Shown here: positions 11,049 through 62,842 of the stretch, one piece after another
How positions within the stretch are numbered: the stretch's first letter is position 1
How the letters are laid out: each line of letters starts with the position of its first letter
Assembly: GCA_964343605.1 (NCBI GenBank)
Contig: CAYFKJ010000003.1
Location: 73,474-137,473 of the forward strand
Direction: 5' to 3'
DNA length: 64,000 bases
Source: an uncultured Rhodospirillaceae bacterium
GTDB lineage: Bacteria; Pseudomonadota; Alphaproteobacteria; UBA2966
Program-made: the position numbers and the translations under genes
Notes under the pieces: model-generated
Seen by the model: only the letters and a program-made list of their open reading frames with translations
The model's database searches: none
What the model was told of the DNA's origin: nothing

Positions 11049-11085
11049 ATACGATGAGCAACTTTCCGGCGGAGCCCGTTCGGCG

Positions 11086-12261: not shown

Positions 12262-12264
12262 ATC

Positions 12265-12380
12265 GTCATTCCCGCGCAGGCGGGAATCCATGCCGTAGCC
12301 TCGAAAAATTGTGCCTTGTAGTGGGAACCGTACGCTCAGGCATGGATTCCGGACAAGCGCGACGCGCTTTCCGGAATGGC
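12265..12380. repeat. MITE/REP-like intergenic element, copy 2
   Basis: It starts 4 nt after the aminotransferase stop. Its ends GTCATTCCCGCGCAGGCGGGAATCCAT ... TCAGGCATGGATTCCGGACAAGCGCGACGCGCTTTCCGGAATGGC match copy 1. Confidence 0.6.
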
Positions 12381-12400
12381 AAAAAACCGGGCGTTAGAAT

Positions 12401-12442
12401 GAAAAAAAGGGCGGCCACCGGAAACGGGGCCGCCCTCTTTGG
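12401..12442. terminator. bidirectional rho-independent terminator (aminotransferase / rne convergent pair)
   Basis: 11-bp GC stem GGGCGGCC(A)CCG-GAAA-CGGGGCCGCCC with a GNRA tetraloop. It is flanked by an A7 tract on the plus strand, which reads as T7 on the rne strand. Confidence 0.6.
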
Positions 12443-12459
12443 GTTCGGGAGTTTAGGCG

Positions 12460-15174
12460 CTAGCCGCGCTGCCACCATCCCTTGCGGCGGGATTTCGGAG
12501 CGTCCTCTTCAGCCGCATTCGTCCCGTCGTCGGGGGCCGGCTCGGTCGCCACGATTTGCGGCGTGGCAATTTCCGTCGCAGGCTCGGCAACTTCCGCGAC
12601 GCCGATGTCGGCATCGGCGGCGAGTGTCGGCTCGGGTTCAGGTTCCGCTTCCGGTTCGGCCTCGGCTTCCGTTACCGCTTCGGCCTCAGCCTCAGCCTCA
12701 GCCGGCTCGTCGGCGGGTTCGGGAGCGTCTGCCTCTTCCGCTTCCGGTTCAGTCGGGGCTTCTGCCTCTGTGGGCGATTCTTGGTCGCCGTCCTCAGCTT
12801 CAACGGTTTCCACCGGCGCGTCTTCCGTTACCGGCTGATCGCTTTCGGCATCGGCCGCGGCTTCGGTTTCGGGGGCAGCAGTCTCGTCGGTTGTCGCCTC
12901 CGTTACCTCCTGAGCCTCCGCCTCAACCGGCGTTTCGGCTGCCGGCTTGCGGCTGCGGCGACGACGGCGGCGGCGGCGGGGTTTCTCTTCCGCGACACCG
13001 CTGTCCTTGGCCTCCGAGTCGGCATCAACCGCTTCGTCCGCAGAATCGGCCTCCTGAGCGGCGGGCTGCTCATCGGGCGTGGCCTCCTTGTCTTCGTCGG
13101 ATTTCGCCTCGTCCGTCGCTGTTTCCGTAGACTCAGCGCTCTCCGTCTTGCCACGACGGCGGCGGCCACCACGCTTGCCGCGCCGGCGCCGTTTTTTGGG
13201 CTGGGTGTCTTCGTCGCTGTCCGAATCGTCGGCTTCGACGATGATCACTTCGCTTACCGCCTCGATTTCCTCGACTTCGCCGCTGTGCGTGCGGACCCGT
13301 TCCAGACGATAGTCCGGCGGCACCAGGCTTTCGTCGGCGCCGATCCCGATGCGCATCTTGAAGCGTTCTTCCAGCAGCAAAACGCCGTCGCGTTTCTGGT
13401 TGAGCAGGTAGAGCGCCACCGGCGTCGCCACGTGAATGAGTATCTCGGCCGCCCGGCCACGAATGCCTTCTTCCTCGATGGCCCGCAGCACGTGGAGGGC
13501 CGAGCTTTCGATGGAGCGCACCACGCCGGTGCCCTCGCAGTGGGCACAGACCTCTGTACTCGCCTCGATCAGGCTGGGCCGCAGGCGCTGGCGCGACATC
13601 TCCAAGAGCCCGAACGGGCTGATGCGGCCGACCTGGATGCGGGCACGGTCTGATTTGAGCTTTTCCTTCAGCCGCCGTTCGACGTTGCGGGCGTTACGCG
13701 ATTCGTCCATATCGATGAAGTCGATGACGACAAGACCGGCCAGGTCCCGCAGACGCAATTGGCGAGCCACTTCCTCGGCCGCCTCCAGGTTCGTGCGGTA
13801 GGCGGTTTCCTCAATGTTGCGTTCGCGCGTCGAGCCGCCGGAGTTGACGTCGATGGCGACCAGCGCCTCCGTCGGGCTGATGACGATGTAGCCGCCGGAT
13901 TTGAGCTGCACGGTGGGGCTGTGCATCGAATCGAACTGCTGCTCCACCTGGTAGCGATGGAACAGGGGAATGCGGTCGGCATAGGGCTGCACGCGCTTGG
14001 CATGAGAGGGCATGAGCATCTTCATGAAGCTCTTGGCGGCCTTGTAGCCTTCCTCGCCCTCGACGAGCACTTCGTCGATTTCCTTGGAATAGAGATCCCG
14101 GATCGAACGCTTGATGAGGTTCGCCTCTTCGTAAGTCAGGCTGGGCGCCGTCGATTCAAGCGTGAGTTCACGGACGCTGTCCCACAGGCGCAAGAGATAC
14201 TCGTAGTCGCGTTTGATCTCCGCCTTGCTGCGCGATTGGCCGGCGGTGCGGACAATCAGGCCCATGCCGGCCGGAACCTTCAGGCCGTCGATGACGCCCT
14301 TGAGTTTTTTGCGGTCCGACTGACTCGTGATCTTGCGGCTGACGCCGCCGCCTCTGGCGGTGTTGGGCATCAGGACGCAGTAGCGGCCCGCCAGTGAAAG
14401 ATAAGTGGTGAGCGCCGCACCCTTGTTGCCGCGTTCCTCCTTGACCACTTGCACCAGAAGGATTTGCCGGCGTTTGATGACTTCCTGAACCTTGTAACGG
14501 CGTTGCGGCCGGCGGCGGGGGCGGGCGACTTCGTCCAGTTCATCACCGCCCACGGCCACGACATTGCGGCCCCGGGGCTTGGGTTCGCCGTCGTCGGCGT
14601 CGTCAATTTCGCCTTCGTCGAGATCCGCTTCCTCAGCCGCCAGGTCGGCTTCGCCTTCCGCGTCCTCGGGATCGTCGGTGTCGCCGGCGTCGGCTTCCGG
14701 TTCTCCTCCATCGGCCTCCGCGCTTACGTCTTTTTCGTCGCCATCATCGGTCACGTCCTCGACGCCGTTGAGATCGTCCTCGGTATCGAGGTCTTCGGCG
14801 TCGGCTTCCTCGTCCTCGTCCTCGTTGGCTTCGGCCTGGGCGGAGCGCTCGGCCTCCGCTTCCTCCTCGGCGACCTCGGCAGCGCCCTCAAACGCTTCCT
14901 GTTCAAGCAGCGCCTGGCGGTCCTCAATCGGGATCTGGTAATAGTCGGGATGGATTTCGCTGAAGGGCAGGAAGCCGTGCCGGTTGCCGCCGTAGTCGAC
15001 GAACGCGGCCTGAAGCGACGGCTCAACGCGCGTCACTTTGGCAAGATAGATATTGCCCTTGAGCTGCTGTTTGGTGGCTGATTCGATATCGAATTCTTCG
15101 AGGCGCGTTCCCCGAACGACCACGACCCGGGTTTCTTCCGGATGGGCCGCGTCAATAAGCATACGCGTAGCCAT
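12460..15174 (-). CDS. rne: ribonuclease E
   Basis: The N-terminus MATRMLIDAAHPEETRVVVVRGTRLEEFDIESATKQQLKGNIYLAKVTRVEPSLQAAFVDYG is canonical RNase E (S1/catalytic domain). The long acidic/Arg-rich low-complexity C-terminal half is the usual degradosome scaffold. Confidence 0.93.
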   Translation of the reverse strand: MATRMLIDAAHPEETRVVVVRGTRLEEFDIESATKQQLKGNIYLAKVTRVEPSLQAAFVDYGGNRHGFLPFSEIHPDYYQIPIEDRQALLEQEAFEGAAEVAEEEAEAERSAQAEANEDEDEEADAEDLDTEDDLNGVEDVTDDGDEKDVSAEADGGEPEADAGDTDDPEDAEGEADLAAEEADLDEGEIDDADDGEPKPRGRNVVAVGGDELDEVARPRRRPQRRYKVQEVIKRRQILLVQVVKEERGNKGAALTTYLSLAGRYCVLMPNTARGGGVSRKITSQSDRKKLKGVIDGLKVPAGMGLIVRTAGQSRSKAEIKRDYEYLLRLWDSVRELTLESTAPSLTYEEANLIKRSIRDLYSKEIDEVLVEGEEGYKAAKSFMKMLMPSHAKRVQPYADRIPLFHRYQVEQQFDSMHSPTVQLKSGGYIVISPTEALVAIDVNSGGSTRERNIEETAYRTNLEAAEEVARQLRLRDLAGLVVIDFIDMDESRNARNVERRLKEKLKSDRARIQVGRISPFGLLEMSRQRLRPSLIEASTEVCAHCEGTGVVRSIESSALHVLRAIEEEGIRGRAAEILIHVATPVALYLLNQKRDGVLLLEERFKMRIGIGADESLVPPDYRLERVRTHSGEVEEIEAVSEVIIVEADDSDSDEDTQPKKRRRRGKRGGRRRRGKTESAESTETATDEAKSDEDKEATPDEQPAAQEADSADEAVDADSEAKDSGVAEEKPRRRRRRRRSRKPAAETPVEAEAQEVTEATTDETAAPETEAAADAESDQPVTEDAPVETVEAEDGDQESPTEAEAPTEPEAEEADAPEPADEPAEAEAEAEAVTEAEAEPEAEPEPEPTLAADADIGVAEVAEPATEIATPQIVATEPAPDDGTNAAEEDAPKSRRKGWWQRG

Positions 15175-48482: not shown

Positions 48483-50231
48483 CTACTCGAGGCCGGCCAG
48501 CCTCAAGCCCTCGATGAGTTTGTCGAGATCTTCCTTGACTGCATAAGGCTGGGTCGCCTCGATCAGTGCCAGCGTGCTGTCGGGATAGAGGGCTTTGTAC
48601 CGATCCATGACCTCGCGGGCTTCATCGATCCTACCCAGTTGGGCAAGTGCAGCGCTTTTGACACGATAGGCGCCGGGAAAATCGGGCCGGTCCTGCAGTG
48701 CCAGATCCATACATCTGGAGGCTTCCTCGTACTGGCCGCCAACGAAATGCGCGACCGCCTTCGACGCCACGAAATAGGGCACCTGGGGATCCCTTGGGCT
48801 GAGGCGCAGGGCCTGTTCGATGTCGGCCAAGGCGTCGTCACAGTTCCCGCCGAATCCTTTTGCTAAACCCCGATAGCCGAAAGCGGTGGCGCTGTTGGGG
48901 TTGAGATCGAGCGCGCGGGTCAGTTCGCTGATGGCGCCGTCGGGATTGCGGTGCATCATCTGCAGATAACCTAGCGCGATGTGCGCCCAGGAATCCCGCT
49001 CGTCCATGACCGCGGCCTTCCGCGCCAGGCGTTCGGCTTCATCCAATTCGGGTTCCCTGGCGCGCCAACCCATATGAATGGAAACGATGTACATGAAGGC
49101 CAGCGCGCTGCTGGCGAACGAAAGATCGGGGAAGTCTTCGACGACTTTACGCATCAGCCGGATGGCTTCGTCGGTATCGGCTTTGTTCAGCAGCCAAAAA
49201 TGCGTCCGCGCCTTCATCAGGGTTTCCCAGGCCGAAATCTGCGAAGGATCACGCTTGGAGGCGTTGTGTCCCTCCAGGGCGAAGACCTCGGGCTCGACGG
49301 CCGCCGCGATATTGCGGGTGATTTCGTCCTGCAGGTCGAAGATATCGACGACCTGCCGGTCGAAGCGCTCAGCCCATACGTGATTGCCGGAGCTGCCCTC
49401 GATCAGCTGAACGTTGATGCGCATGCGGTCGCCGGATTTGCGCACGCTGCCCTCGATGACGTAGCGGACGTCGAGTTCCTTCGCCACTTCGGCGACGTTT
49501 ACCGCCCGGCCCTTGTAGGTAAACGTGGTGTTGCGCGCGATCACCGTCATCCAGCGATTGCGCGAAAGTTCGGTGATGATGTCCTCGGTGACACCATCGA
49601 CGAAATATTCCTGTTCCGGATCCCCGGACATATTGTCGAACGGAAGGACAGCGAGTGAAGGCTTGTCGGATGTAGCAGACGAGGCTGTTTCCGCAACGGG
49701 GTCGGGCACTGGTGTCTCGGGCTTCGCAATCGAAACGCCGTAAACCCTGACCGGGGCGGACACATGCTTGACCTCATGCTCGCCGAGGTCTTCGAACTCG
49801 TAATCCAGCCGGTTCCGCACCTGTTCGAAGACGCCGCCGGAAATACAGACGGCGCCCGGTTCCGCCAGAGCCTCGATGCGGGCGGCGATGTTGACGCCTT
49901 CGCCGTGGATGTCTTCGCCGTCGTCGATGATGTCGCCGAGGTTGACGCCCATGCGGAAATCCAACTGGCTTCCAGCCAGCCCCTGCTGCATGTCGACGGC
50001 GCAAGTTACGGCGTTCTGCACGGTCGGGAATTCCGCCAGAAAACCGTCGCCTGTGTGTTTCACAATACGTCCGGAATGATTGTCGATTATGGGATCGATG
50101 ACGTCGGAGCGAGCTGCCTTCCAGGCGGCAACGGTGCCGTCCGTGTCTTGCTCCATAAGACGTGTGTAGCCCACGACGTCAGCCGCCAAAATCGCCGACA
50201 GCCGCCGCGCGTCACCACCCCCTTCACTCAT
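48483..50231 (-). CDS. adenylate/guanylate cyclase (class III) fused to a TPR/BTAD-like regulatory domain
   Basis: N-terminal CHD (ADVVGYTRLME...HTGDGFLAEF...GVNIAARIEALA) and C-terminal TPR helices. Start taken at MSEGGG with a GGGGGA RBS. Confidence 0.8.
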   Translation of the reverse strand: MSEGGGDARRLSAILAADVVGYTRLMEQDTDGTVAAWKAARSDVIDPIIDNHSGRIVKHTGDGFLAEFPTVQNAVTCAVDMQQGLAGSQLDFRMGVNLGDIIDDGEDIHGEGVNIAARIEALAEPGAVCISGGVFEQVRNRLDYEFEDLGEHEVKHVSAPVRVYGVSIAKPETPVPDPVAETASSATSDKPSLAVLPFDNMSGDPEQEYFVDGVTEDIITELSRNRWMTVIARNTTFTYKGRAVNVAEVAKELDVRYVIEGSVRKSGDRMRINVQLIEGSSGNHVWAERFDRQVVDIFDLQDEITRNIAAAVEPEVFALEGHNASKRDPSQISAWETLMKARTHFWLLNKADTDEAIRLMRKVVEDFPDLSFASSALAFMYIVSIHMGWRAREPELDEAERLARKAAVMDERDSWAHIALGYLQMMHRNPDGAISELTRALDLNPNSATAFGYRGLAKGFGGNCDDALADIEQALRLSPRDPQVPYFVASKAVAHFVGGQYEEASRCMDLALQDRPDFPGAYRVKSAALAQLGRIDEAREVMDRYKALYPDSTLALIEATQPYAVKEDLDKLIEGLRLAGLE

Positions 50232-50316
50232 TACCAAATTCCCCCAAGTAAGCCCTCGGGGCGATTGTACGTCATCTGAAAGGCTGGTGCGACCCCGCGG
50301 GGAGCCGGGAAATCGG

Positions 50317-51141
50317 TCAATCGTCGGGCTTCCCGCCCAATTTTTCCTTGCGCAGGCGCTCCTCGTACTGGCCCACATAAGAGGTATGCGTCACCAGCCC
50401 GGTGGCTTCGTCCCAGGTATGGAGATAGACGGCGGGCGGTTCCATGACCAGCACCAATGGGGCGTCCTCGCCCATTTCGAGGCCGATCTGGTGGGCCGTG
50501 CTGGGCGCGACCGAGACACAAGTACCGGCCCAGCTAATGGTGATGGGCCGGTGCAGGTGGCCGGCGGTGACCCGCAGGACCTGGGGATGGCGCTGGACGA
50601 CCTCCATCATCGGCGTCGGGTTGTCGAAGCCGTGACGGTCCATGATCTCGATGCCGCTGGTGATCGGCGGGTGGTGCATGAAGATCAGCGTCGGGCGATC
50701 AGGTTCCGCCCCCAACGTGGCATCCAACCAGGCCAGGCGTTCGGTGCACATGGTACCGCCGATCTCGCCCTCGATCTGGGTGTCCAGCCCGACCAGGCGC
50801 AGCGGGTAATCCTCCAGGGCGTAGTGGATGAAGCCATCGGCCGGCAAATAGTCGTGATCGGGAAAGGCGGCTCTTAGATGCTTGCGGGAATCGTGGTTGC
50901 CGGGAATGACGTAGAGCGGCATGTCCAGCGGCGCGAAAAGCTCCCGCAAGACTTCGTATTCTTCCGGCTTGGCCCAGTCGACGAGGTCGCCGGTGGCGAG
51001 CACGACATCCGGCAGCGGGTCCATCGCCATGATATGGGCGACGGCCCGGGCCAGATGGTCGCAGGTCTGGTAGTTGCCGTCCGAATCCTTTCCACGCTCG
51101 GAAACGTGGAGGTCGGAAATTTGGGCGGCGATGAAGGTCAA
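50317..51141 (-). CDS. calcineurin-like metallophosphoesterase, class III cyclic-nucleotide phosphodiesterase (CpdA-like)
   Basis: The motif series D-x-H (ISDLHV), GDLVD, GNHD, HHPP and GHLH, with the spacing of CpdA/Rv0805-type PDEs. Confidence 0.65.
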   Translation of the reverse strand: MTFIAAQISDLHVSERGKDSDGNYQTCDHLARAVAHIMAMDPLPDVVLATGDLVDWAKPEEYEVLRELFAPLDMPLYVIPGNHDSRKHLRAAFPDHDYLPADGFIHYALEDYPLRLVGLDTQIEGEIGGTMCTERLAWLDATLGAEPDRPTLIFMHHPPITSGIEIMDRHGFDNPTPMMEVVQRHPQVLRVTAGHLHRPITISWAGTCVSVAPSTAHQIGLEMGEDAPLVLVMEPPAVYLHTWDEATGLVTHTSYVGQYEERLRKEKLGGKPDD

Positions 51142-55151: not shown

Positions 55152-55612
55152 CCGCCATCTACGTGGACGCCGATGCCTGTCCGGTAAAGGACGAGGCGGT
55201 CCGCGTGGCCGCACGCCACGGTTTGAAGACCTACATGGTGAGCGATGGCGGTATCCGGCCCAGCCGAGATCCGTTGGTTGAATTGGTAATCGTACCGCCG
55301 GGAGCGGATGCTGCCGATGACTGGATCGCCGAGAACATCCAGGCCGCCGATATCTGCGTCACCAACGATATCCCGCTGGCAGCGCGCTGCCTGGAGGCGG
55401 ATGCGTTCGCCCTCAAGCCTAACGGCGAGGCGTTCACGGAAAGCGGCATCGGCATGGCCCTGGCCAACCGCGAACTGATGCAGGACCTGCGCGAGCGCGG
55501 CGAGATTACGGGTGGACCGAGGCCGTTCAGCAAGGCCGACCGATCGGCCTTTCTCAACCGCTTGGAAACCACTGTGCAAGCTGCAAAAAAACAAACAAAA
55601 TCATATACTTAA
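55148..55612 (+). CDS. YaiI/YqgV-family (UPF0178/DUF188) protein
   Basis: MTAIYVDADACPVKDE... is typical of the family. ATGA overlap with the upstream gene. GGAGG RBS. Confidence 0.7.
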   Translation: MTAIYVDADACPVKDEAVRVAARHGLKTYMVSDGGIRPSRDPLVELVIVPPGADAADDWIAENIQAADICVTNDIPLAARCLEADAFALKPNGEAFTESGIGMALANRELMQDLRERGEITGGPRPFSKADRSAFLNRLETTVQAAKKQTKSYT

Positions 55613-55677
55613 TCGAATTTTCGCTTCCTTAACCCCCAAACCCTATAATTGAACGATCCGGTCCGGAGAATTCGTAA

Positions 55678-56268
55678 TTGGGGGAATCCTTCATGGATAG
55701 CACGACTGTCATCATCGTCGTCGTCGTCGTTCTGGCGCTGATCTATCTCTGGTACGCAACCATCATCCGCCGCCGGAATAAGGTTCTGGAAGCTCTTTCG
55801 GGGATCGATGTGCAACTCAAGAAGCGCTCCAATCTCATCCCCAACATTCTCCAAATCGCCCGGAAGTTCATGGAACACGAAAAGGGCCTGTTGACCGAAA
55901 TCACCGAGCTGCGGGAGCAGGTCGATCGTGATTACGATCCGAAGGACGCGGAGGCAGTGAAGGGGCACTTGGCGCTGGCCGGGGAACTCGCCGGCAAGGT
56001 GGGCGGGCTGATGGTAAGAGTTGAGGACTATCCTGAGCTCAAATCCCAGGAAACCATGATCAAGGCGCAGCTCACCTACAATGAAGTCGAAGCCCAGATC
56101 GCGGCGGCGCGGCGCTTCTACAACGCCTCGGTCGCCGGCCTCAACAATTCGGTCCAGATTTTCCCGGGCAATCTCATCGCCGGCCTCGCCGGCGCCGCTG
56201 TGATGCCGTTTTTCGAAGCGGACGAAACCTCCAGGGCGCCGGTCAACGCCGCCGATCACCTGGGCTAG
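55678..56268 (+). CDS. LemA-family protein
   Basis: N-terminal TM helix then RRRNKVLEALSGIDVQLKKRSNLIPNI... LemA signature. Confidence 0.85.
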   Translation: MGESFMDSTTVIIVVVVVLALIYLWYATIIRRRNKVLEALSGIDVQLKKRSNLIPNILQIARKFMEHEKGLLTEITELREQVDRDYDPKDAEAVKGHLALAGELAGKVGGLMVRVEDYPELKSQETMIKAQLTYNEVEAQIAAARRFYNASVAGLNNSVQIFPGNLIAGLAGAAVMPFFEADETSRAPVNAADHLG

Positions 56269-56277
56269 CTCCACGCC

Positions 56278-57387
56278 ATGGTGTTGCGCCCGTTGCACTG
56301 GTGGCGCCTGGCCGGCGAAATCGAAGTGCCGGTCAAGGAGATCTTCCTCGGCATGTTGGGGCTGTTCGCTGGACGGGGGCTGAAACCCTTCTCGGGCGAA
56401 CTCAATTTCCGCCGTGTCGAGGGTATCGACGAACCGTTCGCGCCGCTTTACGAGCGCGACATCCGACCAAAGGTTCAGGTCTTCGAGTCGCAGCGCGTCG
56501 CCGCAGTCCGATCACTTGCGCTCCGGTTGTTCGTATCGAGCGTCGTCTTGATCGGCGCCATCGCCACGATCATCTACACCGACGGTCTAAATCAGAAAGG
56601 TGTCATTAGCGACGACACCCAAGGCATCATTATCTGGATCGGCATCGGGATCATGCTGTTCCTGTTCTGGTGGACGTTCCGGCCGGTGAGCAAGTACAAA
56701 TCCTCGGTCAAGTCGGAGATCTATCCGCTCATCTTCAAGTACTTCGGCAAGGATTTCACCTACAAGGAAGAGGGCCCCTTGAGTGCCCGATCCGTGAAGG
56801 ATTCCGGGATCATCCCGAATTTCGAGGATGAAGCGCGCGAGGATTATGTGCGCGGCACCTGGAAGGGTGTTCGGCTTGAGCTGACCGAAACAAAACTGAC
56901 CGTGGAGCACGGCAGCGGCGAGGACAGCCGGACGGAAACCAAGTTTCGCGGCCTCCTTATCCTTCTCACCATGAACAAGAAGTTCTCGGGGCGCACCGTT
57001 ATCAAGCGTGACCTGACCATGGTCTTCAACTGGTTCGCGGACAAGTTCGAACGGGAGCTCGAAAACGTCAAACTGGAGGATCCCAGGTTCGAACGCGAAT
57101 TCGAGGTTTATTCGTCGGATCAGGTTGAAGCCCGGTACCTGCTGACGCCCACGTTCATGGAACGGCTGATGGAACTGACCGAGGCCTTCGGCGGCAAGCC
57201 GATCCAGGCCTGTTTTTTCAAGAACAAACTGCTGCTGACCATCAAGACGAACAAGGACCGGTTCGAAACCGGATCCATCTTCCGGCCCGCCACCTTCGCC
57301 AAGGAGATCGATACGGTGCTGAAGGAAATGCCGGCGATCTTCAAAATCGTCGAGGTTCTGAAGCTCGACCAGAAGATCGGGCTGTGA
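56278..57387 (+). CDS. LemA-associated membrane protein (DUF3137-like)
   Basis: Two TM helices followed by a ~250-aa soluble domain, immediately downstream of LemA. Family assignment is tentative. Confidence 0.45.
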   Translation: MVLRPLHWWRLAGEIEVPVKEIFLGMLGLFAGRGLKPFSGELNFRRVEGIDEPFAPLYERDIRPKVQVFESQRVAAVRSLALRLFVSSVVLIGAIATIIYTDGLNQKGVISDDTQGIIIWIGIGIMLFLFWWTFRPVSKYKSSVKSEIYPLIFKYFGKDFTYKEEGPLSARSVKDSGIIPNFEDEAREDYVRGTWKGVRLELTETKLTVEHGSGEDSRTETKFRGLLILLTMNKKFSGRTVIKRDLTMVFNWFADKFERELENVKLEDPRFEREFEVYSSDQVEARYLLTPTFMERLMELTEAFGGKPIQACFFKNKLLLTIKTNKDRFETGSIFRPATFAKEIDTVLKEMPAIFKIVEVLKLDQKIGL

Positions 57388-57388
57388 C

Positions 57389-57895
57389 ATGCCGCCGGGG
57401 TATCAAATCAGGGTCGCGAAGCCGTCCGATGAAGCCGGCGTAACCGATTTTCTCCAGCTTTCGTACCCCGTGCTGATGGGCTCCAGTTACGAGGAGACCT
57501 TATTGGCGGTGGCTTTGCCGTTGATGACACGTGCCAATCCCGGTTTGCTCGAATCGGGGACCTATTACGTGGCGGTGGGCGAGGGCGGCCGGATCGTCGG
57601 CAGCGGCGGCTGGACCCGGGAGCGGCCCGGAACGGGCGAGATTATCGAAGGCTTGGCACACATCCGGCATTTCGCCGTTCATCCGGACTGGACGCGCCAA
57701 GGCATCGCACGGGCGATCTATGACCAGTGCGAAGCGGCAGCCAGGGCGTCGGGCTTCGGGCGCTTCGAGTGCTACTCCAGCCTCAACGCGGAAGGGTTTT
57801 ACGCCGCCCTGCGATTCAAGCGAATCCGTCCGGTCGTCGTGCCGATGGGGGAGGGTATCGAATTTCCCGCCATCCTCATGGAGCGGGATATCTAG
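57389..57895 (+). CDS. GNAT-family N-acetyltransferase
   Basis: Acetyl-CoA binding region RQGIARAIYDQCEAAARASG. Confidence 0.75.
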   Translation: MPPGYQIRVAKPSDEAGVTDFLQLSYPVLMGSSYEETLLAVALPLMTRANPGLLESGTYYVAVGEGGRIVGSGGWTRERPGTGEIIEGLAHIRHFAVHPDWTRQGIARAIYDQCEAAARASGFGRFECYSSLNAEGFYAALRFKRIRPVVVPMGEGIEFPAILMERDI

Positions 57896-58080: not shown

Positions 58081-58310
58081 CTGAAATATGAACGCGGGCG
58101 GATATTTGTTTTCGAAATTTGAATAGAATATTTGAAATTTCCACTACTTAAGATACTGTTGAAAAAATTTAATCTTAAAAAAAGACGGTGATTACAATTG
58201 TATGCACGCTAAAATGGCGAAAATGGAATTGCCGTCACCGAACTTAAGTTGCTTAACTGCGGAACAAAACTTAGGAAAAACTGAAGTAAAAAAACTAAAC
58301 AAATAGGGAA
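58081..58310. promoter_or_regulatory. AT-rich (~30% GC by eye) promoter/boundary region of the low-GC island
   Basis: An abrupt compositional drop relative to the ~65% GC flank. Contains TTTGAAAT-type repeats and the palindrome GAAATTTC. Confidence 0.4.
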
Positions 58311-58871
58311 ATGAAAGAACAACTTATGAACCCCAGAAGTTGGTATTATCAAGACAAAGAAAAATTTCCGAATTTTCCCGATTTTGCCAATCTGTATAGG
58401 GATTGTGACGGCACCATACTTTTCAGGTCGGATTGTGGTTCCCAATCCTGTGGTTCCGCTGACTGCTGTCACTCGACCGGTGAAGACAGTTTTATTTTCT
58501 TTCTTCCGGGCGAGTTCGAATTTCAGACGTCCCAGGACCCCGCAATTCCATTTCATTCGGTATCCGAACAATTCTCGGACCGTTTTCACTGTTCCGGCAA
58601 TGCCGATTGCATTTACGAGGCCCGCCCGCTCGATTGCAGGAGCTATCCGTACTTTCCCGCGGTAATCGATATGGAACACGTGGGGTATTTCGACTGCCGC
58701 AGATCCCATGCATGTCCACTAAGAATTGATCTGGAATTGAGGGATCATCTTAAGAAAATACACAAATGGTGGCGTGTTCTCCTTAAAAACGAAGAAGTAA
58801 AAATATGGGCTAATGCTATGAGTAGGCACTGTAAATCTTTGCCAATTATGGAAATTCCGGAATTTAAATAA
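58311..58871 (+). CDS. YkgJ-family cysteine-cluster protein (putative Zn/Fe-chelating CxxCxxCC domain)
   Basis: SDCGSQSCGSADCC cluster plus downstream CIYEARPLDCRSYPYFP, resembling the PF03692 pattern. Low GC. Confidence 0.5.
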   Translation: MKEQLMNPRSWYYQDKEKFPNFPDFANLYRDCDGTILFRSDCGSQSCGSADCCHSTGEDSFIFFLPGEFEFQTSQDPAIPFHSVSEQFSDRFHCSGNADCIYEARPLDCRSYPYFPAVIDMEHVGYFDCRRSHACPLRIDLELRDHLKKIHKWWRVLLKNEEVKIWANAMSRHCKSLPIMEIPEFK

Positions 58872-58887
58872 ATGGTGTGAGGAAAAA

Positions 58888-60285
58888 ATGGCCGAATATT
58901 CGGACAATTTCTATAATACATTCGCGCGGGATGCCCTCAAGGGGCTGTCGTTATTTGGCACGGCCGGCAATCCCCTGCGCGAGGAGATGTTCGTCAGCTC
59001 GAGCCTGCCGGAAGCACGAATTCGCTTCCTGGTGGATGCCGATATTCCATCCACATACGAGGTCGAAAGCTACATCAAAAAGTTCGCCGACTTCGTTTCC
59101 GTATTCCTGATTGCCTCCCGGCTTGCCGAGGTACCGGTCCCACCTTCCATTGAAATCGAAAAGTACGTCGACCTTCTGATCAGGATTGTTGGCGGTTCCG
59201 GCGATGGCGAGGTGCCGCGCAAGCGGGAGGATATGCACTACAACCCCTCGCCCGCACTATCAGCCCAACTCGGAACTCCATTCATCGATTTCTGCGGGAG
59301 CTTCGCCGTTACCCTTATCGATTATCTCACTTATGCCGGCAAGGACAACATGTCAGCCGACGTTTCCGGGATGGCCAAGAGAGAAGTTCTGCAAATCCTG
59401 CATTTCCTGACCGACCCGGAAACCTTCATCGAGGTTGATGAGAAAATCGGTTGGGCTTTCGTGAGCGGGAGCGACTGTGACGACGGCAAGGGAATTCCCA
59501 TTCCGGATCAGCGGCACATCCTTCCGACCGCCTGGGCTGTCACGGCGCTCGCCAGGGGGTGGGCCTTGTGCAAGGAACTGGGCGAAGAAGCAGAACTGCG
59601 GAAGAAGATCAAGGGCGAGATTCTCCCGAAGGCACTGGCCTGGATCGATACGCTGAAGACCGAGAACGGTCTTTACAAGATCTCGGCTGTCGAGCGCGAT
59701 TTCGATTTGGTCGGCCACAATTTTGCCACTGAAACGCTCATAACGATGTCAGACATGGAAATTCCGGGCTCGGTTGAGGAAAGCATCGAGGCGGTTGAGC
59801 GATTCACACAGCTTCTGGATGAAGACTATCAAGGTACGTACGAAAATTTTGAAGCGAATATCGGATACCGGGTTTACGTGAAATCCAAGCCCGTAATTTC
59901 CTATGACGACAAAACGACATGGGCCCACTGTCTTTCGACGTTGGCGCTGTCGTTCTCGGCGTTGGAAAAAAGGTCTGATGCGACCGAGGAATTGCGGGAA
60001 AAGCTACGAAATCACTGTGTCTCAATGGCCGATCAAATCATCAACGTTCGGCGAAACTCTGAGAGCGGCCTTTGGGATGAAAAATACCTCCAGATTCACT
60101 GGAACCTGGCGGCGGTCGAAGCCTTGTTGAGGCTGGAAAACTTCGTGAGCATCGAGCGCTACGAAATAAGCGACGAACACATCAGGTCGGCCGTCGCGCG
60201 TCTCATGGATAGCGTCGAATTTCAATCCTCGTTGGAGGAGCATTTGATCGGTGCGCTCAGCAGAGTTCGAAAAGTATCCAAATAG
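58888..60285 (+). CDS. hypothetical protein (465 aa, no recognisable domain)
   Basis: Clean ORF with a GAGGA RBS 6 nt upstream. Low GC. Second gene of the island operon. Confidence 0.5.
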   Translation: MAEYSDNFYNTFARDALKGLSLFGTAGNPLREEMFVSSSLPEARIRFLVDADIPSTYEVESYIKKFADFVSVFLIASRLAEVPVPPSIEIEKYVDLLIRIVGGSGDGEVPRKREDMHYNPSPALSAQLGTPFIDFCGSFAVTLIDYLTYAGKDNMSADVSGMAKREVLQILHFLTDPETFIEVDEKIGWAFVSGSDCDDGKGIPIPDQRHILPTAWAVTALARGWALCKELGEEAELRKKIKGEILPKALAWIDTLKTENGLYKISAVERDFDLVGHNFATETLITMSDMEIPGSVEESIEAVERFTQLLDEDYQGTYENFEANIGYRVYVKSKPVISYDDKTTWAHCLSTLALSFSALEKRSDATEELREKLRNHCVSMADQIINVRRNSESGLWDEKYLQIHWNLAAVEALLRLENFVSIERYEISDEHIRSAVARLMDSVEFQSSLEEHLIGALSRVRKVSK

Positions 60286-60336
60286 AAATTCGCTTCCCAA
60301 ATAAAACCAAGAACAAAACGAATAGAGGTTCGGCTG

Positions 60337-61134
60337 ATGAAATACAAAATAGCGTTTCATAGTTATAAAGGCGGCGTTGGCCGGACCAAGGTAATGGTTG
60401 GCTTGGGCGCCATGCTCGCGCTTCAGGGGGTGCGCGTGGGCATGCTGGACTTCGACCTGGATTCGTCGGGACTGGCGACAATCTTCGGACACAGCAATGA
60501 CGACTTGGGGGACCGGGAGCTTCTCAGCATCCTGCAGCATGCGAATCCCAGCGTTTTGCCCGATTCGATCATCAACGTCACCGATTACGTTCAGGCGAAA
60601 TCGGGGAAAACCGTCAATGGCCACGGCTGCCTGAAATACGTTCCGACAATTTCCGACCCCGATGCATCCGACAACATCACCTTCTCAAGCCCCATGCGCT
60701 ATGCCGTTGACGAGATATTCGAGGCGCTGGTGACCGACAATGGCATCGATTTGCTGCTGGTGGATCTGAAACCGGGTTATTCGCCGTCATCCGCACTTAT
60801 TTTTCCCCTTGTGAACCGCGGTGTCGTTGTGACCCGCCTGGACCACCAAAATATCGAGGGCTTGTCGTCCACGGTACCGATCATGATCGAAAAGGATCTG
60901 GACCCGTTTCTGGTCGTAAATATGGTTCCAAATCTTGGCGAGAACGACAAAAGGGCCGAAGAGCGAATAAAGATCTTGGAAAAAGCGACGAACAGCAAAG
61001 TAAAGATCAGAATTGATTACGATCCCTTGAGCGTGTTCGAGAATGATGTCGAGGCCTGCTCAAGGGAAGATTCTTCGATGTACAAGGGACTGCAGACACT
61101 TTCGATCTTCGTTCAGGACCTGGTCAATTCGTGA
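60337..61134 (+). CDS. ParA/MinD/NifH-like P-loop ATPase with an atypical KGGVGRT Walker A
   Basis: FHSYKGGVGRTKVMVG matches the deviant Walker A (xKGGxGK[ST]), but with Arg at the P-loop Lys position. GAGGT RBS. Confidence 0.55.
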   Translation: MKYKIAFHSYKGGVGRTKVMVGLGAMLALQGVRVGMLDFDLDSSGLATIFGHSNDDLGDRELLSILQHANPSVLPDSIINVTDYVQAKSGKTVNGHGCLKYVPTISDPDASDNITFSSPMRYAVDEIFEALVTDNGIDLLLVDLKPGYSPSSALIFPLVNRGVVVTRLDHQNIEGLSSTVPIMIEKDLDPFLVVNMVPNLGENDKRAEERIKILEKATNSKVKIRIDYDPLSVFENDVEACSREDSSMYKGLQTLSIFVQDLVNS

Positions 61135-61177
61135 GGCATTGACCTGATTCGGATCTTCTTCGAGGAGAGCGTGCCAT

Positions 61178-62764
61178 ATGAATGACGATACCTTTCAGCA
61201 CTCGTTTCAGAACGCAAACCGAACCTATTACGATCCATTGTACGAGGTGGTACTGGTAACCGACCCCAGTTCGTCGACCGGCGAACGAGGATCATTTTGG
61301 GGGCGGAACCGGGTTCGCAAACATGCCTCGATAACCCACGACAGATTTCTGTCCATTGTCGACAGCTACGAATTCAGCCGCATGAACTTTCTTCACCAGG
61401 CCGGATTCGTCTGGCTGATTTTTCCCTCCGCCACGCACACCAGATTTGCCCATGCGCTGGGTTGTTGGCACCTTTCAGACCTTGCTTCCGACAACGTCAT
61501 CGTCAATCGAAAAATCGATGAAAACAAAGGAGCCAGCTCGGATTTGTTGCGGTTGAGCGAATTGCTCACCCATGCGGGGATAAAGGAAGAATTTCATTTG
61601 GCCCTGCTTCTCCATGATATCGGGCACTTCCCGTTTTCCCACGTCATCGAGAACAATCTGTTGCTCGGCCAACGTTACCCCGATCAGGATCAGACGAAAG
61701 GCATCATCCTCAATCACGAAACCATCGGCACCAGCCTGATCCAGGGTGAAAACAAAGTGAGCGAGCTTTTCAGCGAGTACATTCGGCGAAAAATCGGCGA
61801 CGATTTCGACAAGTCGAAGATTTTGTCGAATTGCCTCAAGGAGGCGGGGGAGACCATCGATCAAAAACTGATCTCCCACCTCATTTCACCAAAGCAAAAC
61901 GGATATGTCTCGAAGACCTACAAGAACGATCTCAGGTTCATCAACGGATTACACGATCTGGTTTCCGGGGTCATCGATCTGGATCGTATCGATCATTACC
62001 GCCGGGATTCCTTTTTTACATCGATTAGAACCGGCGAATTCAACGTCATCGGCCTGATCCTGAACATGGCGATGCTCGACGGTGAGGATCCAAATCGCTA
62101 CCAAACCCAACTCATGGACGACGGCATTGAACATGCCTTCCAAATTCTCTATGCGAAATCGAGCCTTACCAGGACGGTATTCCACCACGAACACAATCTC
62201 GCTTACGAAATAATGCTCAACAGGGCGATCAACCTTCATTGGGACGTTGCCGACGACCACTTTCGAACATTCTTGCCGTTTTACGACGACATGGAGCTTC
62301 TTCAAACGCTTCTGCACTCCAGCAACGCCGAGGCGTCCCGACTGATCCAGCGGATCCAACTGAGAATTCCGTTCCGCGGTATCGGTAAGTTTTGCGTCGA
62401 CGAAGCGACCTTCGAAAGCCTGGAAGGGGAAACCGCTTTTGAGAGGCGAAACGACTTCTATGAAAGATTCAGGAAGCAGCTAAAGACGCAAGGGAAGACC
62501 GAAGAGGACGTCGCGCTGAGGCTGGACAAGCAATTTGGCAAAAGCGTTCAGAGCCTGGAATGGATGGATCTCGCTAAAATTCTGGACAAGAACGAGTCGC
62601 CGCTCGACAAGATGCAGGGACATCTCAAGTTCATCGATTTCATCAGGGATCTCGGAGACATAGCAACCCGGACGTTTTGGATCTACTCCACCGAGGACGA
62701 TGCCGGCAACGCGAAAGAGCTGGAAGTTCTAGCGACGCAGATCGGCGGAAAAAAGATCAGTTGA
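61178..62764 (+). CDS. HD-domain dNTP triphosphohydrolase-like protein (dGTPase/SAMHD1 family)
   Basis: RFAHALGCWH (His motif), ALLLHDIGHFPFSH (HD motif) and IDLDRIDHYRRDS (the D-x-D-[KR]-x-D-[YH]-x-x-RD motif shared by SAMHD1/Dgt). GAGGAG RBS. Confidence 0.65.
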   Translation: MNDDTFQHSFQNANRTYYDPLYEVVLVTDPSSSTGERGSFWGRNRVRKHASITHDRFLSIVDSYEFSRMNFLHQAGFVWLIFPSATHTRFAHALGCWHLSDLASDNVIVNRKIDENKGASSDLLRLSELLTHAGIKEEFHLALLLHDIGHFPFSHVIENNLLLGQRYPDQDQTKGIILNHETIGTSLIQGENKVSELFSEYIRRKIGDDFDKSKILSNCLKEAGETIDQKLISHLISPKQNGYVSKTYKNDLRFINGLHDLVSGVIDLDRIDHYRRDSFFTSIRTGEFNVIGLILNMAMLDGEDPNRYQTQLMDDGIEHAFQILYAKSSLTRTVFHHEHNLAYEIMLNRAINLHWDVADDHFRTFLPFYDDMELLQTLLHSSNAEASRLIQRIQLRIPFRGIGKFCVDEATFESLEGETAFERRNDFYERFRKQLKTQGKTEEDVALRLDKQFGKSVQSLEWMDLAKILDKNESPLDKMQGHLKFIDFIRDLGDIATRTFWIYSTEDDAGNAKELEVLATQIGGKKIS

Positions 62765-62842
62765 GCGGGACACGGGTTGTCGACCGCCTCGTCTTACCCC
62801 GCTGGATCAGGCTCAGCATTTTCGCGCCGACTTAGGAGGTCG

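Follow-up and report, generated by a model that had tools for sequence, protein, structure and literature searches.

Four tightly spaced, intact + strand ORFs (58311-62764) lie inside a 62% GC metabolic region of an uncultured Rhodospirillaceae bacterium, and they raise two questions: do they belong together, and what would they do as a unit? The first-pass annotation had proposed a defence operon. The window analysed here is the whole stretch of 64,000 nucleotides, in which the locus is laid out as follows.

58081..58310, + strand: AT-rich leader, 230 bp, 32% GC, the left compositional edge of the island
58311..58871, + strand: g1, 186 aa, Cys-cluster protein
58888..60285, + strand: g2, 465 aa, (alpha/alpha)6-barrel protein
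60337..61134, + strand: g3, 265 aa, MinD/ParA-class (SIMIBI) ATPase
61178..62764, + strand: g4, 528 aa, SAMHD1/EF1143-type HD-domain (d)NTP triphosphohydrolase homologue

The ORF coordinates bore out the gene positions and the gaps of 16, 51 and 43 nt given earlier, and a purine-rich, SD-like stretch precedes each start (AGGGA, GAGGA, AGAGG, GAGGAG), as had been claimed. The low-GC tract of ~230 bp was also confirmed, but the upstream 8 kb measured 62% GC instead of ~65%. The leader is presumed to be the promoter/regulatory region of the cassette, a role that we infer; its + strand has no sigma-70 consensus match, and it matches no Rfam family. GC content was 44% in g1, 53.5% in g2, 52% in g3 and 51% in g4, with a GC3 of 0.46-0.67 in the four genes versus 0.71-0.85 in the flanking genes. 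Downstream, GC rises gradually, to 56% in the SBP gene and 62% past 63.6 kb. Ordinary metabolic genes flank the cassette. No tRNA or integrase was found at the island, in agreement with the first reading, and the window island has no flanking repeat of note.

The g4 protein is a SAMHD1/EF1143-type homologue, much as the first-pass annotation had suggested. It matched Pfam HD at 31 bits, and the PDB structures 2q14, 2hek and SAMHD1 at E 5e-18 to 1e-9 (single sequence) and 1.6e-33 to 1e-23 (profile). All catalytic residues are kept, including the H..HD..D set and the dNTPase motif, which reads DLDRIDHYRRD. Across 55 members of its HD subfamily, R89, H146, D147, H150, D272, Y274 and R276 are invariant, and H92, H155, H180 and D277 nearly so. 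Since the SAMHD1 catalytic residues are conserved to this degree, g4, the predicted effector of the cassette, looks active. The subfamily is distinct (~500 aa) and rare, with ~100 clusters among 5.8 billion proteins, and it is sharply set off by score from generic SAMHD1-like homologues.

Genes of the SAMHD1-like HD type are common across bacteria and archaea, and g4 might be a dgt-like gene for housekeeping control of the dNTP pool, with chance neighbours. This explanation is effectively refuted, and its residual probability is minute. The rarity and separate scoring of the subfamily argue against it, and g4 is not dgt: it reached 18 bits against TIGR01353 (dGTP triphosphohydrolase), far under the cutoff of 152. 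Its partners are strictly co-inherited, the neighbourhood outside the cassette is not conserved between loci, and the composition of the cassette is foreign to the host.

The HD subfamily was found at 32 independent loci, with g2 (~450 aa in the family) and g3 directly upstream in 29 of them. A fourth gene is present in 28 of these 29 loci, CxxCxxCC-type in 25 and PRMT-like in three; in the one locus that lacks it, the contig stops inside the HD gene. None of the generic SAMHD1-like HD loci (~137) carries any cassette partner. Because it is repeated at 29 other independent loci, the gene set is beyond chance. Cassette genes overlap or abut, for example with 4-nt overlaps in L005. The pairwise-identity matrices of the four proteins correlate (Mantel r 0.66-0.85), and 0 of 2000 permutations reached the observed value. 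Hosts include Acidobacteriota, Proteobacteria, Bacteroidota, Nitrospirae, Verrucomicrobiota, Desulfobacula and two Thermoplasmatota archaea. Partners are also swapped: a PRMT-like SAM methyltransferase takes the place of the fourth component in L012, L030 and L092, and the same HD subfamily stands behind two different proteins in L095 and L206. The four genes form a cassette that is conserved, co-evolves and moves horizontally. Their co-occurrence in unrelated genomes, which the first-pass annotation had set as the decisive test, was seen with intact cassettes in both bacteria and archaea. No PADLOC-DB 2.0 or NCBIfam model matches the system, consistent with the earlier claim of an unrecognised combination. 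PADLOC-DB lacks models for g1, g2 and g4, and we found no paper that describes the cassette.

The ATPase g3 matches Pfam ParA/CbiA. Its Walker A reads KGGVGRT, with the signature Lys retained and the P-loop Lys changed to Arg; this deviation had been noticed before and turns out to be a family hallmark. The P-loop of 24 cassette ATPases was KGGxGR[ST] in 21, KGGxGK in two and ITGGTGRS in one, and K11, D38, D40, D143, Q171 and G175 are conserved. Against NCBIfam NF047398 ('KGGVGR-motif variant AAA ATPase'), g3 scored 73.8 bits, under the cutoff of 90, and its cassette orthologues 90.9-105.7 bits, above it. The L012 ATPase matched the PADLOC candidate PDC-M28B over positions 129-344 of 438. The family does not look degenerate, since it conserves the signature Lys, the Asp residues of switch I and that of Walker B, and an Arg-to-Lys reversion occurs twice. 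In g3 itself, the Mg/nucleotide motifs are intact. This ATPase is predicted to be a nucleotide-dependent dimerisation switch or adaptor. Kaur et al. (2020, PMC7159879) remarked on 'inactive MinD/ParA-like' domains in conflict systems of prokaryotes. NF047398, the MinD/ParA-like domains of vWA-MoxR/AP-ATPase systems (PMC7159879) and PDC-M28B belong to the same family as g3 and share its Arg-for-Lys P-loop. In these other systems, the domain is part of the same protein as, or accompanies, kinases, AP-ATPases, TPR or vWA-MoxR components, whereas the cassette ATPase is free-standing, 250-270 aa long and coupled to an HD enzyme. Its other motifs and the two reversions argue against simple inactivity.

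The g2 protein had been described as lacking a recognisable domain. It indeed has no sequence-family match, but a fold could now be assigned, an enzyme-like (alpha/alpha)6 barrel (epimerase/glycosidase/cyclase). The six-hairpin barrels that it resembles (GH76, GH88/105, AGE/cellobiose 2-epimerase, class II terpene cyclases and complement TED) share ~10% identity with it, and the catalytic residues of these families were not identified in g2. As a cytoplasmic protein, g2 shares its operon with an ATPase and an HD enzyme, which is not known of any of the six-hairpin barrel families. It is the least conserved and fastest-evolving component, with a median identity of 18.8% versus 30% for HD, a pattern that fits a sensor; we regard g2 as a candidate sensor, ligand-binding subunit or enzyme.

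The window g1 has no Pfam or NCBIfam match. Its Cys residues are arranged as C42-x4-C47-x4-C52-C53, followed by C94, C100, C109 and C135, and it carries a further motif, CIYxxRPxDCRSYPYFP. The start codon is ambiguous (186 aa here, 181 aa as called in ENA). The family was assigned by profile-profile comparison through cassette orthologues: six 'front-type' g1 orthologues have invariant Cys residues in common, and hhalign joined them to 13 'downstream-type' cassette proteins at 95% probability (E 2.6e-8), which in turn pass Pfam PF03692 at 37-54 bits. The proposed YkgJ-type CxxCxxCC identity thus holds at the level of a remote superfamily member, but the motif spacing is C-x4-C-x4-CC. We place g1 as a remote, divergent member of the CxxCxxCC/YkgJ/FliB superfamily; its predicted ligand is a metal or [4Fe-4S] cluster, and it may be SAM-dependent. 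No solved structure exists among its relatives. FliB is a [4Fe-4S]-binding Lys methylase with a CX4CX3CC motif (PMC8598068), a spacing that resembles the CX4CX4CC of g1. FliB/PF03692 and g1 have in common an N-terminal Cys cluster that ends in CC, then C-x-IY-x2-RP-x2-CR-x-[FY]P. Unlike FliB, g1 has no flagellar context.

Defence and MGE contexts were drawn from ~10 loci and are anecdotal, without a controlled statistic. One cassette copy is cargo adjoining TnsA/TnsB/TniB/TniQ (a Tn7-like transposon), and another sits on a plasmid-like RepA/ParA/TrwC/TraI element, beside HipA. Other copies adjoin ThsB-type TIR genes with DUF4062, Vsr-C5-MTase/DUF4928 with a TA pair, or an MTase-Mrr fusion, and one is flanked by a SIR2_2 gene on one side and a helicase-MZB gene on the other. 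The cassette stands beside an integrase in L093 and an ArdC-RadC gene in L016, and DDE transposases adjoin it at some loci. TA genes nearby comprise HipA, PIN_3/DUF6364 and DUF433/DUF5615, and in L008 the HD gene is split by an IS. In a crude control, PADLOC matches were not enriched among the neighbours (83 families near cassettes versus 130 near generic HD genes, 116 proteins per set). Searches of IMG/VR, GenBank phages and PLSDB plasmids turned up no member of the HD subfamily.

Carriage on Tn7-like and plasmid-like elements, the nearby TA genes and the lack of PADLOC enrichment would also suit a selfish or stress module of the addiction or growth-arrest type, with a toxin-like, nucleotide-depleting HD enzyme restrained by the other three proteins. 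The IS-disrupted HD gene of L008 hints that the cassette is costly to its host. Such a module is quite improbable in our view: four conserved, co-evolving components far exceed its needs, and many copies, that of the window among them, are chromosomal and have no mobile element close by. Its mechanism overlaps abortive-infection defence, from which sequence alone hardly separates it.

Polyamine/SAM-metabolism genes abut 6 of 32 cassette loci and 5 of 171 controls (post hoc p = 0.0025), an unexpected adjacency that suits metabolism no less well than it suits defence. AdoMet decarboxylase-like and DUF3326 genes overlap the cassette in L005/L008. It is neighboured by a spermidine synthase in L205, by agmatine deiminase and N-carbamoylputrescine-amidase-like genes in L089, by an agmatinase in L090 and by a PLP decarboxylase in L015. 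At two loci (L201, L202), 2OG-Fe(II) oxygenases adjoin the cassette.

The cassette could encode a pathway, metabolic or modifying, that is linked to SAM/polyamine or nucleoside chemistry rather than an immune sensor-effector. The HD enzyme would strip triphosphate from a (modified) nucleotide, the barrel would be an isomerase, epimerase or hydrolase, the FliB-like/PRMT-like protein would move a methyl (or aminocarboxypropyl) group from SAM, and the ATPase would activate or scaffold. In a sub-variant, the product would itself act against viruses as a nucleoside analogue, comparable to those of viperins or of the oxetanocin pair OxsA/OxsB. The polyamine genes and oxygenases speak for such a pathway, as do the metabolic context of the window, the swap to a PRMT-like methyltransferase and the fact that FliB, the sole characterised CxxCxxCC-type protein, is a [4Fe-4S] SAM-dependent methylase. 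However, the polyamine genes vary by locus and are missing from most loci and from the window, and the post hoc statistic may stem from synteny that Acidobacteriota-like genomes have in common. KGG ATPases of the ParA/MinD class act as switches and are not known to be biosynthetic enzymes, and the conservation of g2 is very low for an enzyme. Conflict genes typically show the extreme rarity, patchy inter-domain spread, Tn7/plasmid carriage, IS disruption and partner swapping seen here. On balance we consider a metabolic pathway unlikely, if a serious contender.

Stand-alone antiphage dGTPases, a defence by dNTP depletion that PADLOC and DefenseFinder list as 'dGTPase', were reportedly described by Tal et al. 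in 2022. Defence dGTPases and human SAMHD1 share with g4 the predicted chemistry, that of an HD (d)NTP triphosphohydrolase with an R..H..HD..H..D..Y..D set. The bacterial enzymes are single genes of the Dgt family, whereas g4 always lies within a multi-gene cassette and falls on the COG1078/SAMHD1-EF1143 side, in its own subfamily. The PADLOC dGTPase model did not match g4, and the orthologous L201 HD protein reached only E 0.007. Among established antiviral dNTPase effectors, Clover (CloA dGTPase + CloB nucleotidyltransferase; PMC12265719) is similar in that an operon-encoded regulatory partner checks or activates the dNTPase. That partner is a Pol-beta-type NTase making p3diT; the cassette has no NTase, but three partners of unrelated folds (ParA-type ATPase, (alpha/alpha)6 barrel, CxxCxxCC or PRMT-like). 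Clover occurs in Proteobacteria and Firmicutes, the cassette mostly in uncultured lineages and archaea.

We tentatively favour an anti-phage (conflict) system that may act via (d)NTP depletion, with a probability that we put slightly short of even. This reading draws on the Tn7 cargo position, the plasmid-like element, the TIR/SIR2/RM neighbours at some loci and partner-module swapping. It has precedents in the antiviral dNTPases, Clover included, in the MinD/ParA-like domains of conflict systems and in the PDC-M28B match of the cassette ATPase. Weighed against it are the absent PADLOC enrichment, the metabolic window flanks devoid of MGE marks, the polyamine/SAM adjacency, the enzyme-like g2 fold, the SAM-enzyme-like fourth component and the lack of subfamily members in the phage and plasmid collections searched. 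At rest, g4 would be kept inactive in complex with the KGGxGR ATPase g3. The fast-evolving barrel g2 would sense infection through a phage product or a small molecule and thereby alter the nucleotide-dependent dimer state of g3. The ATPase would then release or assemble active g4, leading to hydrolysis of dNTPs (possibly NTPs) and a stop to phage DNA synthesis. The fourth component, FliB-like CxxCxxCC or PRMT-like, would add a covalent modification, probably methylation, that may set the threshold of the response or mark self.

The low-GC island contained four consecutive genes on the + strand, together called the cassette below. Their ORFs were confirmed at the positions proposed in the first-pass annotation:

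58311-58871, + strand: g1, 186-aa ORF, Cys-cluster protein
58888-60285, + strand: g2, 465-aa ORF, predicted (alpha/alpha)6-barrel protein
60337-61134, + strand: g3, 265-aa ORF, putative KGGVGRT ATPase
61178-62764, + strand: g4, 528-aa ORF, predicted SAMHD1-like HD enzyme

The intergenic gaps were 16, 51 and 43 nt, and a purine-rich, SD-like stretch was found upstream of all four starts. The start of g1 was ambiguous, with ATG 58311 (186 aa, NCBI-type call) and ATG 58326 (181 aa, ENA gene calls) as candidates; the SD-like AGGGA favours 58311. The GC content was 32% in the 230 bp preceding g1, 44-53.5% in the four genes (GC3 0.46-0.67) and 62% across the surrounding 8 kb, with a GC3 of 0.71-0.85 in the flanking genes.

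Island edges marked by repeats, a tRNA or an integrase were looked for in the window, and none was found. The searches of the window gave no tRNA, no flanking repeats of note and, with the AT-rich leader included, no Rfam family at gathering score. The genes flanking the cassette were ordinary, metabolic ones: thiolase, AMP-ligase, CoA-transferase, hexapeptide transferase, methyltransferase, LemA, DUF3137 and GNAT genes on the 5' side, and SBP_bac_3 and AMP-binding genes on the 3' side. Identical copies of the island, with identical flanks, occurred in ENA metagenome assemblies from a single project. On these grounds only composition marks the boundary of the island, as had been noted from the sequence.

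A second, milder GC dip (window 55600-57400) coincided with the LemA (55678-56268) and DUF3137 (56278-57387) pair. The GC content here was 49-57% per 300-nt window and 58% as a whole; with a host-like GC3 (0.78-0.80), the pair is probably no recent import. Farther upstream, amid aromatic/CoA catabolism genes, the - strand encoded a 631-aa protein with an adenylate/guanylate cyclase catalytic domain and C-terminal TPR repeats (48483-50378).

The Pfam HD domain was found in g4, and the nearest solved structures were of the SAMHD1 type (2q14, 2hek, SAMHD1, C. elegans ZK177.8 and EF1143). The metal ligands H...HD...D corresponded to H92, H146-D147 and D272, in register with 2hek, 2q14 and SAMHD1 homologues. 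The family-specific set tested comprised PSxTHxRFxHS, in which an Arg precedes the first His, together with GHxPFSH and DxDRxDYxxRD; it also aligned in register. Its counterparts in g4, PSATHTRFAHS, LLHDIGHFPFSH and DLDRxDHYxRD, are conserved motifs that form the established catalytic set of SAMHD1-type triphosphohydrolases. Across 55 aligned members of the g4 subfamily, R89, H146, D147, H150, D272, Y274 and R276 were invariant, and H92 (>=90%), H155, H180 and D277 nearly so; the stretch D269-R270-x-D272-H273-Y274-x-R276-D277 was conserved in the family alignment. The subfamily comprises proteins of ~500 aa in about 100 clusters, and an E-value step from 1e-31 to 1e-23 marks its edge. Judged by these residues, g4 is a SAMHD1/EF1143-type (COG1078) HD homologue and a predicted (d)NTP triphosphohydrolase; the traits of that family include conversion of dNTPs to deoxynucleoside and triphosphate, and allosteric oligomerisation. 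The dNTP triphosphohydrolase motifs recognised at first reading are thus borne out by the catalytic residues and their conservation, and the enzyme is not of the Dgt type. A Dgt-type dGTPase was rejected because TIGR01353 gave g4 18.4 bits (cutoff 152) and no PADLOC dGTPase match was obtained for g4 at E<=0.1, the orthologue at locus L201 reaching only E 0.007.

To assess the conservation of the cassette, the subfamily alignment was run against GTDB genomes and JGI metagenomes and individual members were looked up, which gave 32 independent loci. All fetched loci were searched with HMMs made for the four families; generic SAMHD1-like HD genes scored at most 180 and the subfamily at least 300. 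At 29 of the 32 loci the HD gene was directly preceded by a g2 homologue and a KGGxGR ATPase, all on one strand, and none of the three partners was present at any of about 137 generic HD loci. A conserved cassette had been the key prediction of the first-pass annotation, and it was strongly confirmed. A CxxCxxCC-type protein was also present in 25 of the 29 loci; three had a different fourth gene, and in one the contig ended inside the HD gene. The commonest order was g2-g3-g4-g1, with the CxxCxxCC gene directly 3' of the HD gene, as in the L014 cassette of Bacteroidota; the order g1-g2-g3-g4 was found in the window and at L003, L011, L085, L086 and L087. Cassette genes often overlapped by a few bases. 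Matrices of pairwise identity, one per family, were correlated across the four families (r 0.66-0.85; the observed value was reached in 0 of 2000 Mantel permutations), which indicates that the four genes were inherited and transferred as a unit.

The hosts were Acidobacteriota, Aminicenantes, Thermoanaerobaculia, Proteobacteria, Desulfobacula, Bacteroidota, Nitrospirae, Verrucomicrobiota and two Thermoplasmatota archaea. An origin from a prophage, plasmid or virus was rejected, as searches of IMG/VR, GenBank phages and PLSDB yielded no member of the subfamily. A second cassette type was seen at two loci (L095, 3-3871; L206, 7136-11419), where the subfamily HD gene was preceded by genes for two other proteins, not g2 and g3. 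These were a helical protein of ~400-516 aa and a receiver-like protein of ~280-300 aa, 35% and 26% identical between the loci, respectively, and without a Pfam match.

The ATPase g3 scored above the Pfam ParA and CbiA cutoffs and is, on sequence criteria, a MinD/ParA-class (SIMIBI) deviant Walker A ATPase. Its best NCBIfam match was NF047398, 'KGGVGR-motif variant AAA ATPase' (73.8 bits, cutoff 90), with the motif present; cassette orthologues scored 90.9, 100 and 105.7 bits against the same cutoff. The cassette ATPase thus appears to be a member or near-member of NF047398. Among 24 cassette ATPases, the P-loop read KGGxGR[ST] in 21, KGGxGK[ST] in two and ITGGTGRS in one. The canonical GK[ST] Lys occurred only at L016 and L088, and Arg took its place in the window copy (R16) and in 22 of 24 orthologues. 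The signature Lys K11, the switch-I DxD (D38/D40) and the Walker B D143 were kept in 17-19 of 19 cassette ATPases, and an RxDxQNxxG motif was also conserved. This pattern points to a conserved variant, not a degenerate one. 'Inactive MinD/ParA-like' domains have been reported in vWA-MoxR and AP-ATPase conflict systems (Kaur et al. 2020, PMC7159879). We infer that g3 binds nucleotide and acts as a dimerisation switch whose hydrolysis is slow or altered. A role as an Mrp/NBP35-type Fe-S carrier loading g1 was rejected, since the likeness to MrpORP/ApbC did not extend past residue ~55 and g3 lacks a CxxC motif.

No match to g2 was found in HMM libraries including Pfam and NCBIfam. A word-indexed search across 5.8 billion proteins recovered two relatives, and only 2-3 even with a 13-sequence profile, so that HMMER had to be run exhaustively against 1.84 billion proteins, which gave 33 representatives. 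One relative, 37% identical to g2, lay on a 3.3-kb metagenomic contig with all four genes in identical order. The HMMER-derived alignment lifted the pLDDT of the AlphaFold model from 59 to 90: the model built with 24 sequences (pLDDT 89.8, pTM 0.88) and the earlier one from three sequences gave the same fold answer, a predicted (alpha/alpha)6 barrel. The first reading, which saw no recognisable domain in g2, therefore stands for HMM matches, whereas the model does show a fold. The fold is shared with the six-hairpin enzymes of the GH76, GH88, AGE and terpene cyclase groups, but identity to them is ~10% and no sequence model matches; g2 has a known fold and belongs to no known family. It also evolves fastest, with a median identity of 18.8%, compared with 24.9% for g1, 27.3% for g3 and 30.0% for g4; its invariant residues are D134, W189, T214, W252 and Y339.

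The g1 protein carried the motifs CX4CX4CC and CIYEARPLDCRSYP (superfamily pattern C-x-IY-x2-RP-x2-CR). It had no match of its own in the HMM libraries (Pfam, PADLOC, NCBIfam), and its cassette orthologues elsewhere passed Pfam PF03692 (CxxCxxCC). When a profile of six g1-like proteins was aligned by hhalign with one of 13 PF03692-passing cassette proteins, the probability was 95% (E 2.6e-8), which suggests that g1 is a remote member of PF03692 (CxxCxxCC/YkgJ/FliB). The only biochemically characterised relative in PF03692, Salmonella FliB, is a SAM-dependent protein-lysine methylase that holds a [4Fe-4S] cluster via CX4CX3CC (PMC8598068); the Cys spacing of g1, CX4CX4CC, is similar.

At three loci the CxxCxxCC protein was absent and a PRMT-like methyltransferase was found instead:

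L012, 6570-7721: PRMT-like methyltransferase, Thermoplasmatota archaeon
L030, 6574-7728: PRMT-like methyltransferase, Thermoplasmatota archaeon
L092, 4998-5642: PRMT-like methyltransferase, metagenomic contig

This protein consists of an N-terminal winged helix and a class I methyltransferase domain, and it lies at one end of the cassette or the other. Bacterial and archaeal copies were 41-42% identical. All 60 PDB matches listed, of 77, were eukaryotic-type protein arginine methyltransferases, at E values as low as 2e-15. The alignment spanned the double-E loop, with a double-E-loop-like motif present. A reading of the archaeal protein as a DNA methyltransferase, from mad2 and Type II matches, was rejected on the strength of the PRMT matches and this motif. 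As the CxxCxxCC and PRMT-like proteins are non-homologous and displace each other, their exchange points to a SAM-dependent modifier as the fourth component. By analogy to FliB, and given the replacement at the three loci, g1 may bind [4Fe-4S] or Zn and transfer methyl groups from SAM.

The neighbourhoods elsewhere included mobile and defence-related genes. The cassette adjoined TnsA/TnsB/TniB/TniQ (L201), two ThsB-type TIR genes with DUF4062 and TnsA (L202), Vsr-C5-MTase/DUF4928 and a TA pair (L203), and an MTase-Mrr fusion (L085). It was flanked by a SIR2_2 protein and a helicase-MZB protein at L086, and lay on a RepA/ParA/TrwC/TraI element with HipA adjacent at L204. An integrase (L093), ArdC-RadC (L016) and, at some loci, DDE transposases were also found beside it. 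At L008 (Aminicenantes), the HD gene was split by an IS630-like DDE_3 transposase (9974-12745), and an intact CxxCxxCC gene followed (12747-13376). With a crude control, there was no PADLOC excess among cassette neighbours: 83 families, versus 130 for the neighbours of generic HD genes (116 proteins each).

A 2OG-Fe(II) oxygenase gene (~280 aa) lay beside the cassette at two related loci, both within Tn7-like elements (L201, 6495-7331; L202, 6744-7589), on the same strand as the cassette in one and on the opposite strand in the other. It was discarded as a fifth component because it was absent from all other cassette loci.

Polyamine/SAM genes formed another group of neighbours, listed here with their positions:

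L005, 5631-6929, and L008, 13369-15066: AdoMet-decarboxylase-like and DUF3326, overlapping the last gene of the cassette
L205, 12087-12767: spermidine synthase, directly beside the cassette
L089, 1052-3039: agmatine deiminase and CN-hydrolase, directly beside the cassette
L090, 3438-4364: agmatinase, directly beside the cassette
L015, 5648-7297: PLP decarboxylase, directly beside the cassette

Such genes adjoined the cassette at 6/32 loci versus 5/171 controls (Fisher p = 0.0025, in a post hoc test), and the adjacency may reflect synteny or a functional link. In two Thermoplasmata (L021, 8283-9206; L039, 8246-9187), an agmatinase gene lay directly 5' of a non-cassette SAMHD1-like HD gene, which may bear on the polyamine association.

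Two readings of the cassette were weighed. Defence is favoured by the established antiviral activity of the effector family, and by Clover, where a dNTPase has a dedicated regulator (PMC12265719). It is also favoured by the fast evolution of g2, by the compositional island in the window, by the loci beside Tn7, plasmid-like, TIR, SIR2, RM and TA genes, by the IS-split HD gene, and by the swapping of partners round a common HD effector in the second cassette type. Immune systems typically show this kind of swapping. Set beside this were the lack of a PADLOC excess, the lack of viral and plasmid members, the metabolic flanks and the polyamine neighbours. All things considered, we hold a defence system to be a tentative reading, with a chance somewhat short of even. 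That the cassette serves SAM, polyamine or nucleoside chemistry instead, for which the post hoc enrichment of polyamine/SAM genes speaks, we regard as rather unlikely.

Under the defence reading, a depletion mechanism is plausible, and we class the cassette, on its predicted function, as a form of nucleotide-depletion immunity. It resembles (predicted) dNTP-depletion systems and lies outside both the Dgt-type dGTPase family and Clover. Clover (CloA and CloB) has an adjacent Pol-beta-type nucleotidyltransferase, whereas g1-g3 show no NTase similarity and g4 is accompanied by a ParA-type ATPase, an (alpha/alpha)6 barrel and a CxxCxxCC protein. The sole PADLOC-level match of the cassette ATPase domain, to the candidate PDC-M28B, was at the level of the P-loop and domain, which places the cassette outside every PADLOC-modelled system. 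The impression of an unfamiliar gene combination held up: no model in PADLOC-DB of 2023 or NCBIfam, and no paper within an incomplete coverage of the literature, was found to describe the four genes together.

A more specific scheme is speculative, and we give it only a slim chance. Here, in an immune system of bacteria and archaea not recognised before, an Arg-P-loop ParA/MinD-type switch would control a SAMHD1-like dNTPase, and firing would be set by protein methylation, through either a FliB-like [4Fe-4S] enzyme or an interchangeable PRMT-like arginine methyltransferase. The input would come from the (alpha/alpha)6 barrel, for which the danger signal might be a metabolite derived from polyamines or SAM. 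If true, the scheme would describe nucleotide depletion gated by methylation for the first time, and would give prokaryotic PRMT-like and CxxCxxCC proteins their first role in defence.

On either reading, the cassette forms a 4.7-kb unit that has clean limits, lends itself to experiment and offers clear targets for mutation. If metabolic, it would point to a SAM/polyamine-linked nucleotide pathway not known before. If it is a defence system, nucleotide depletion would extend beyond the single enzymes dGTPase and SAMHD1 and the two genes of Clover to a four-component machine that bacteria and archaea have in common. It would add a KGGxGR ParA-type ATPase, an (alpha/alpha)6 barrel and a CxxCxxCC/PRMT-like modifier, none with an assigned immune role, and would provide a testable function for two large 'unknown' families, the NF047398 ATPases and the PF03692 proteins.
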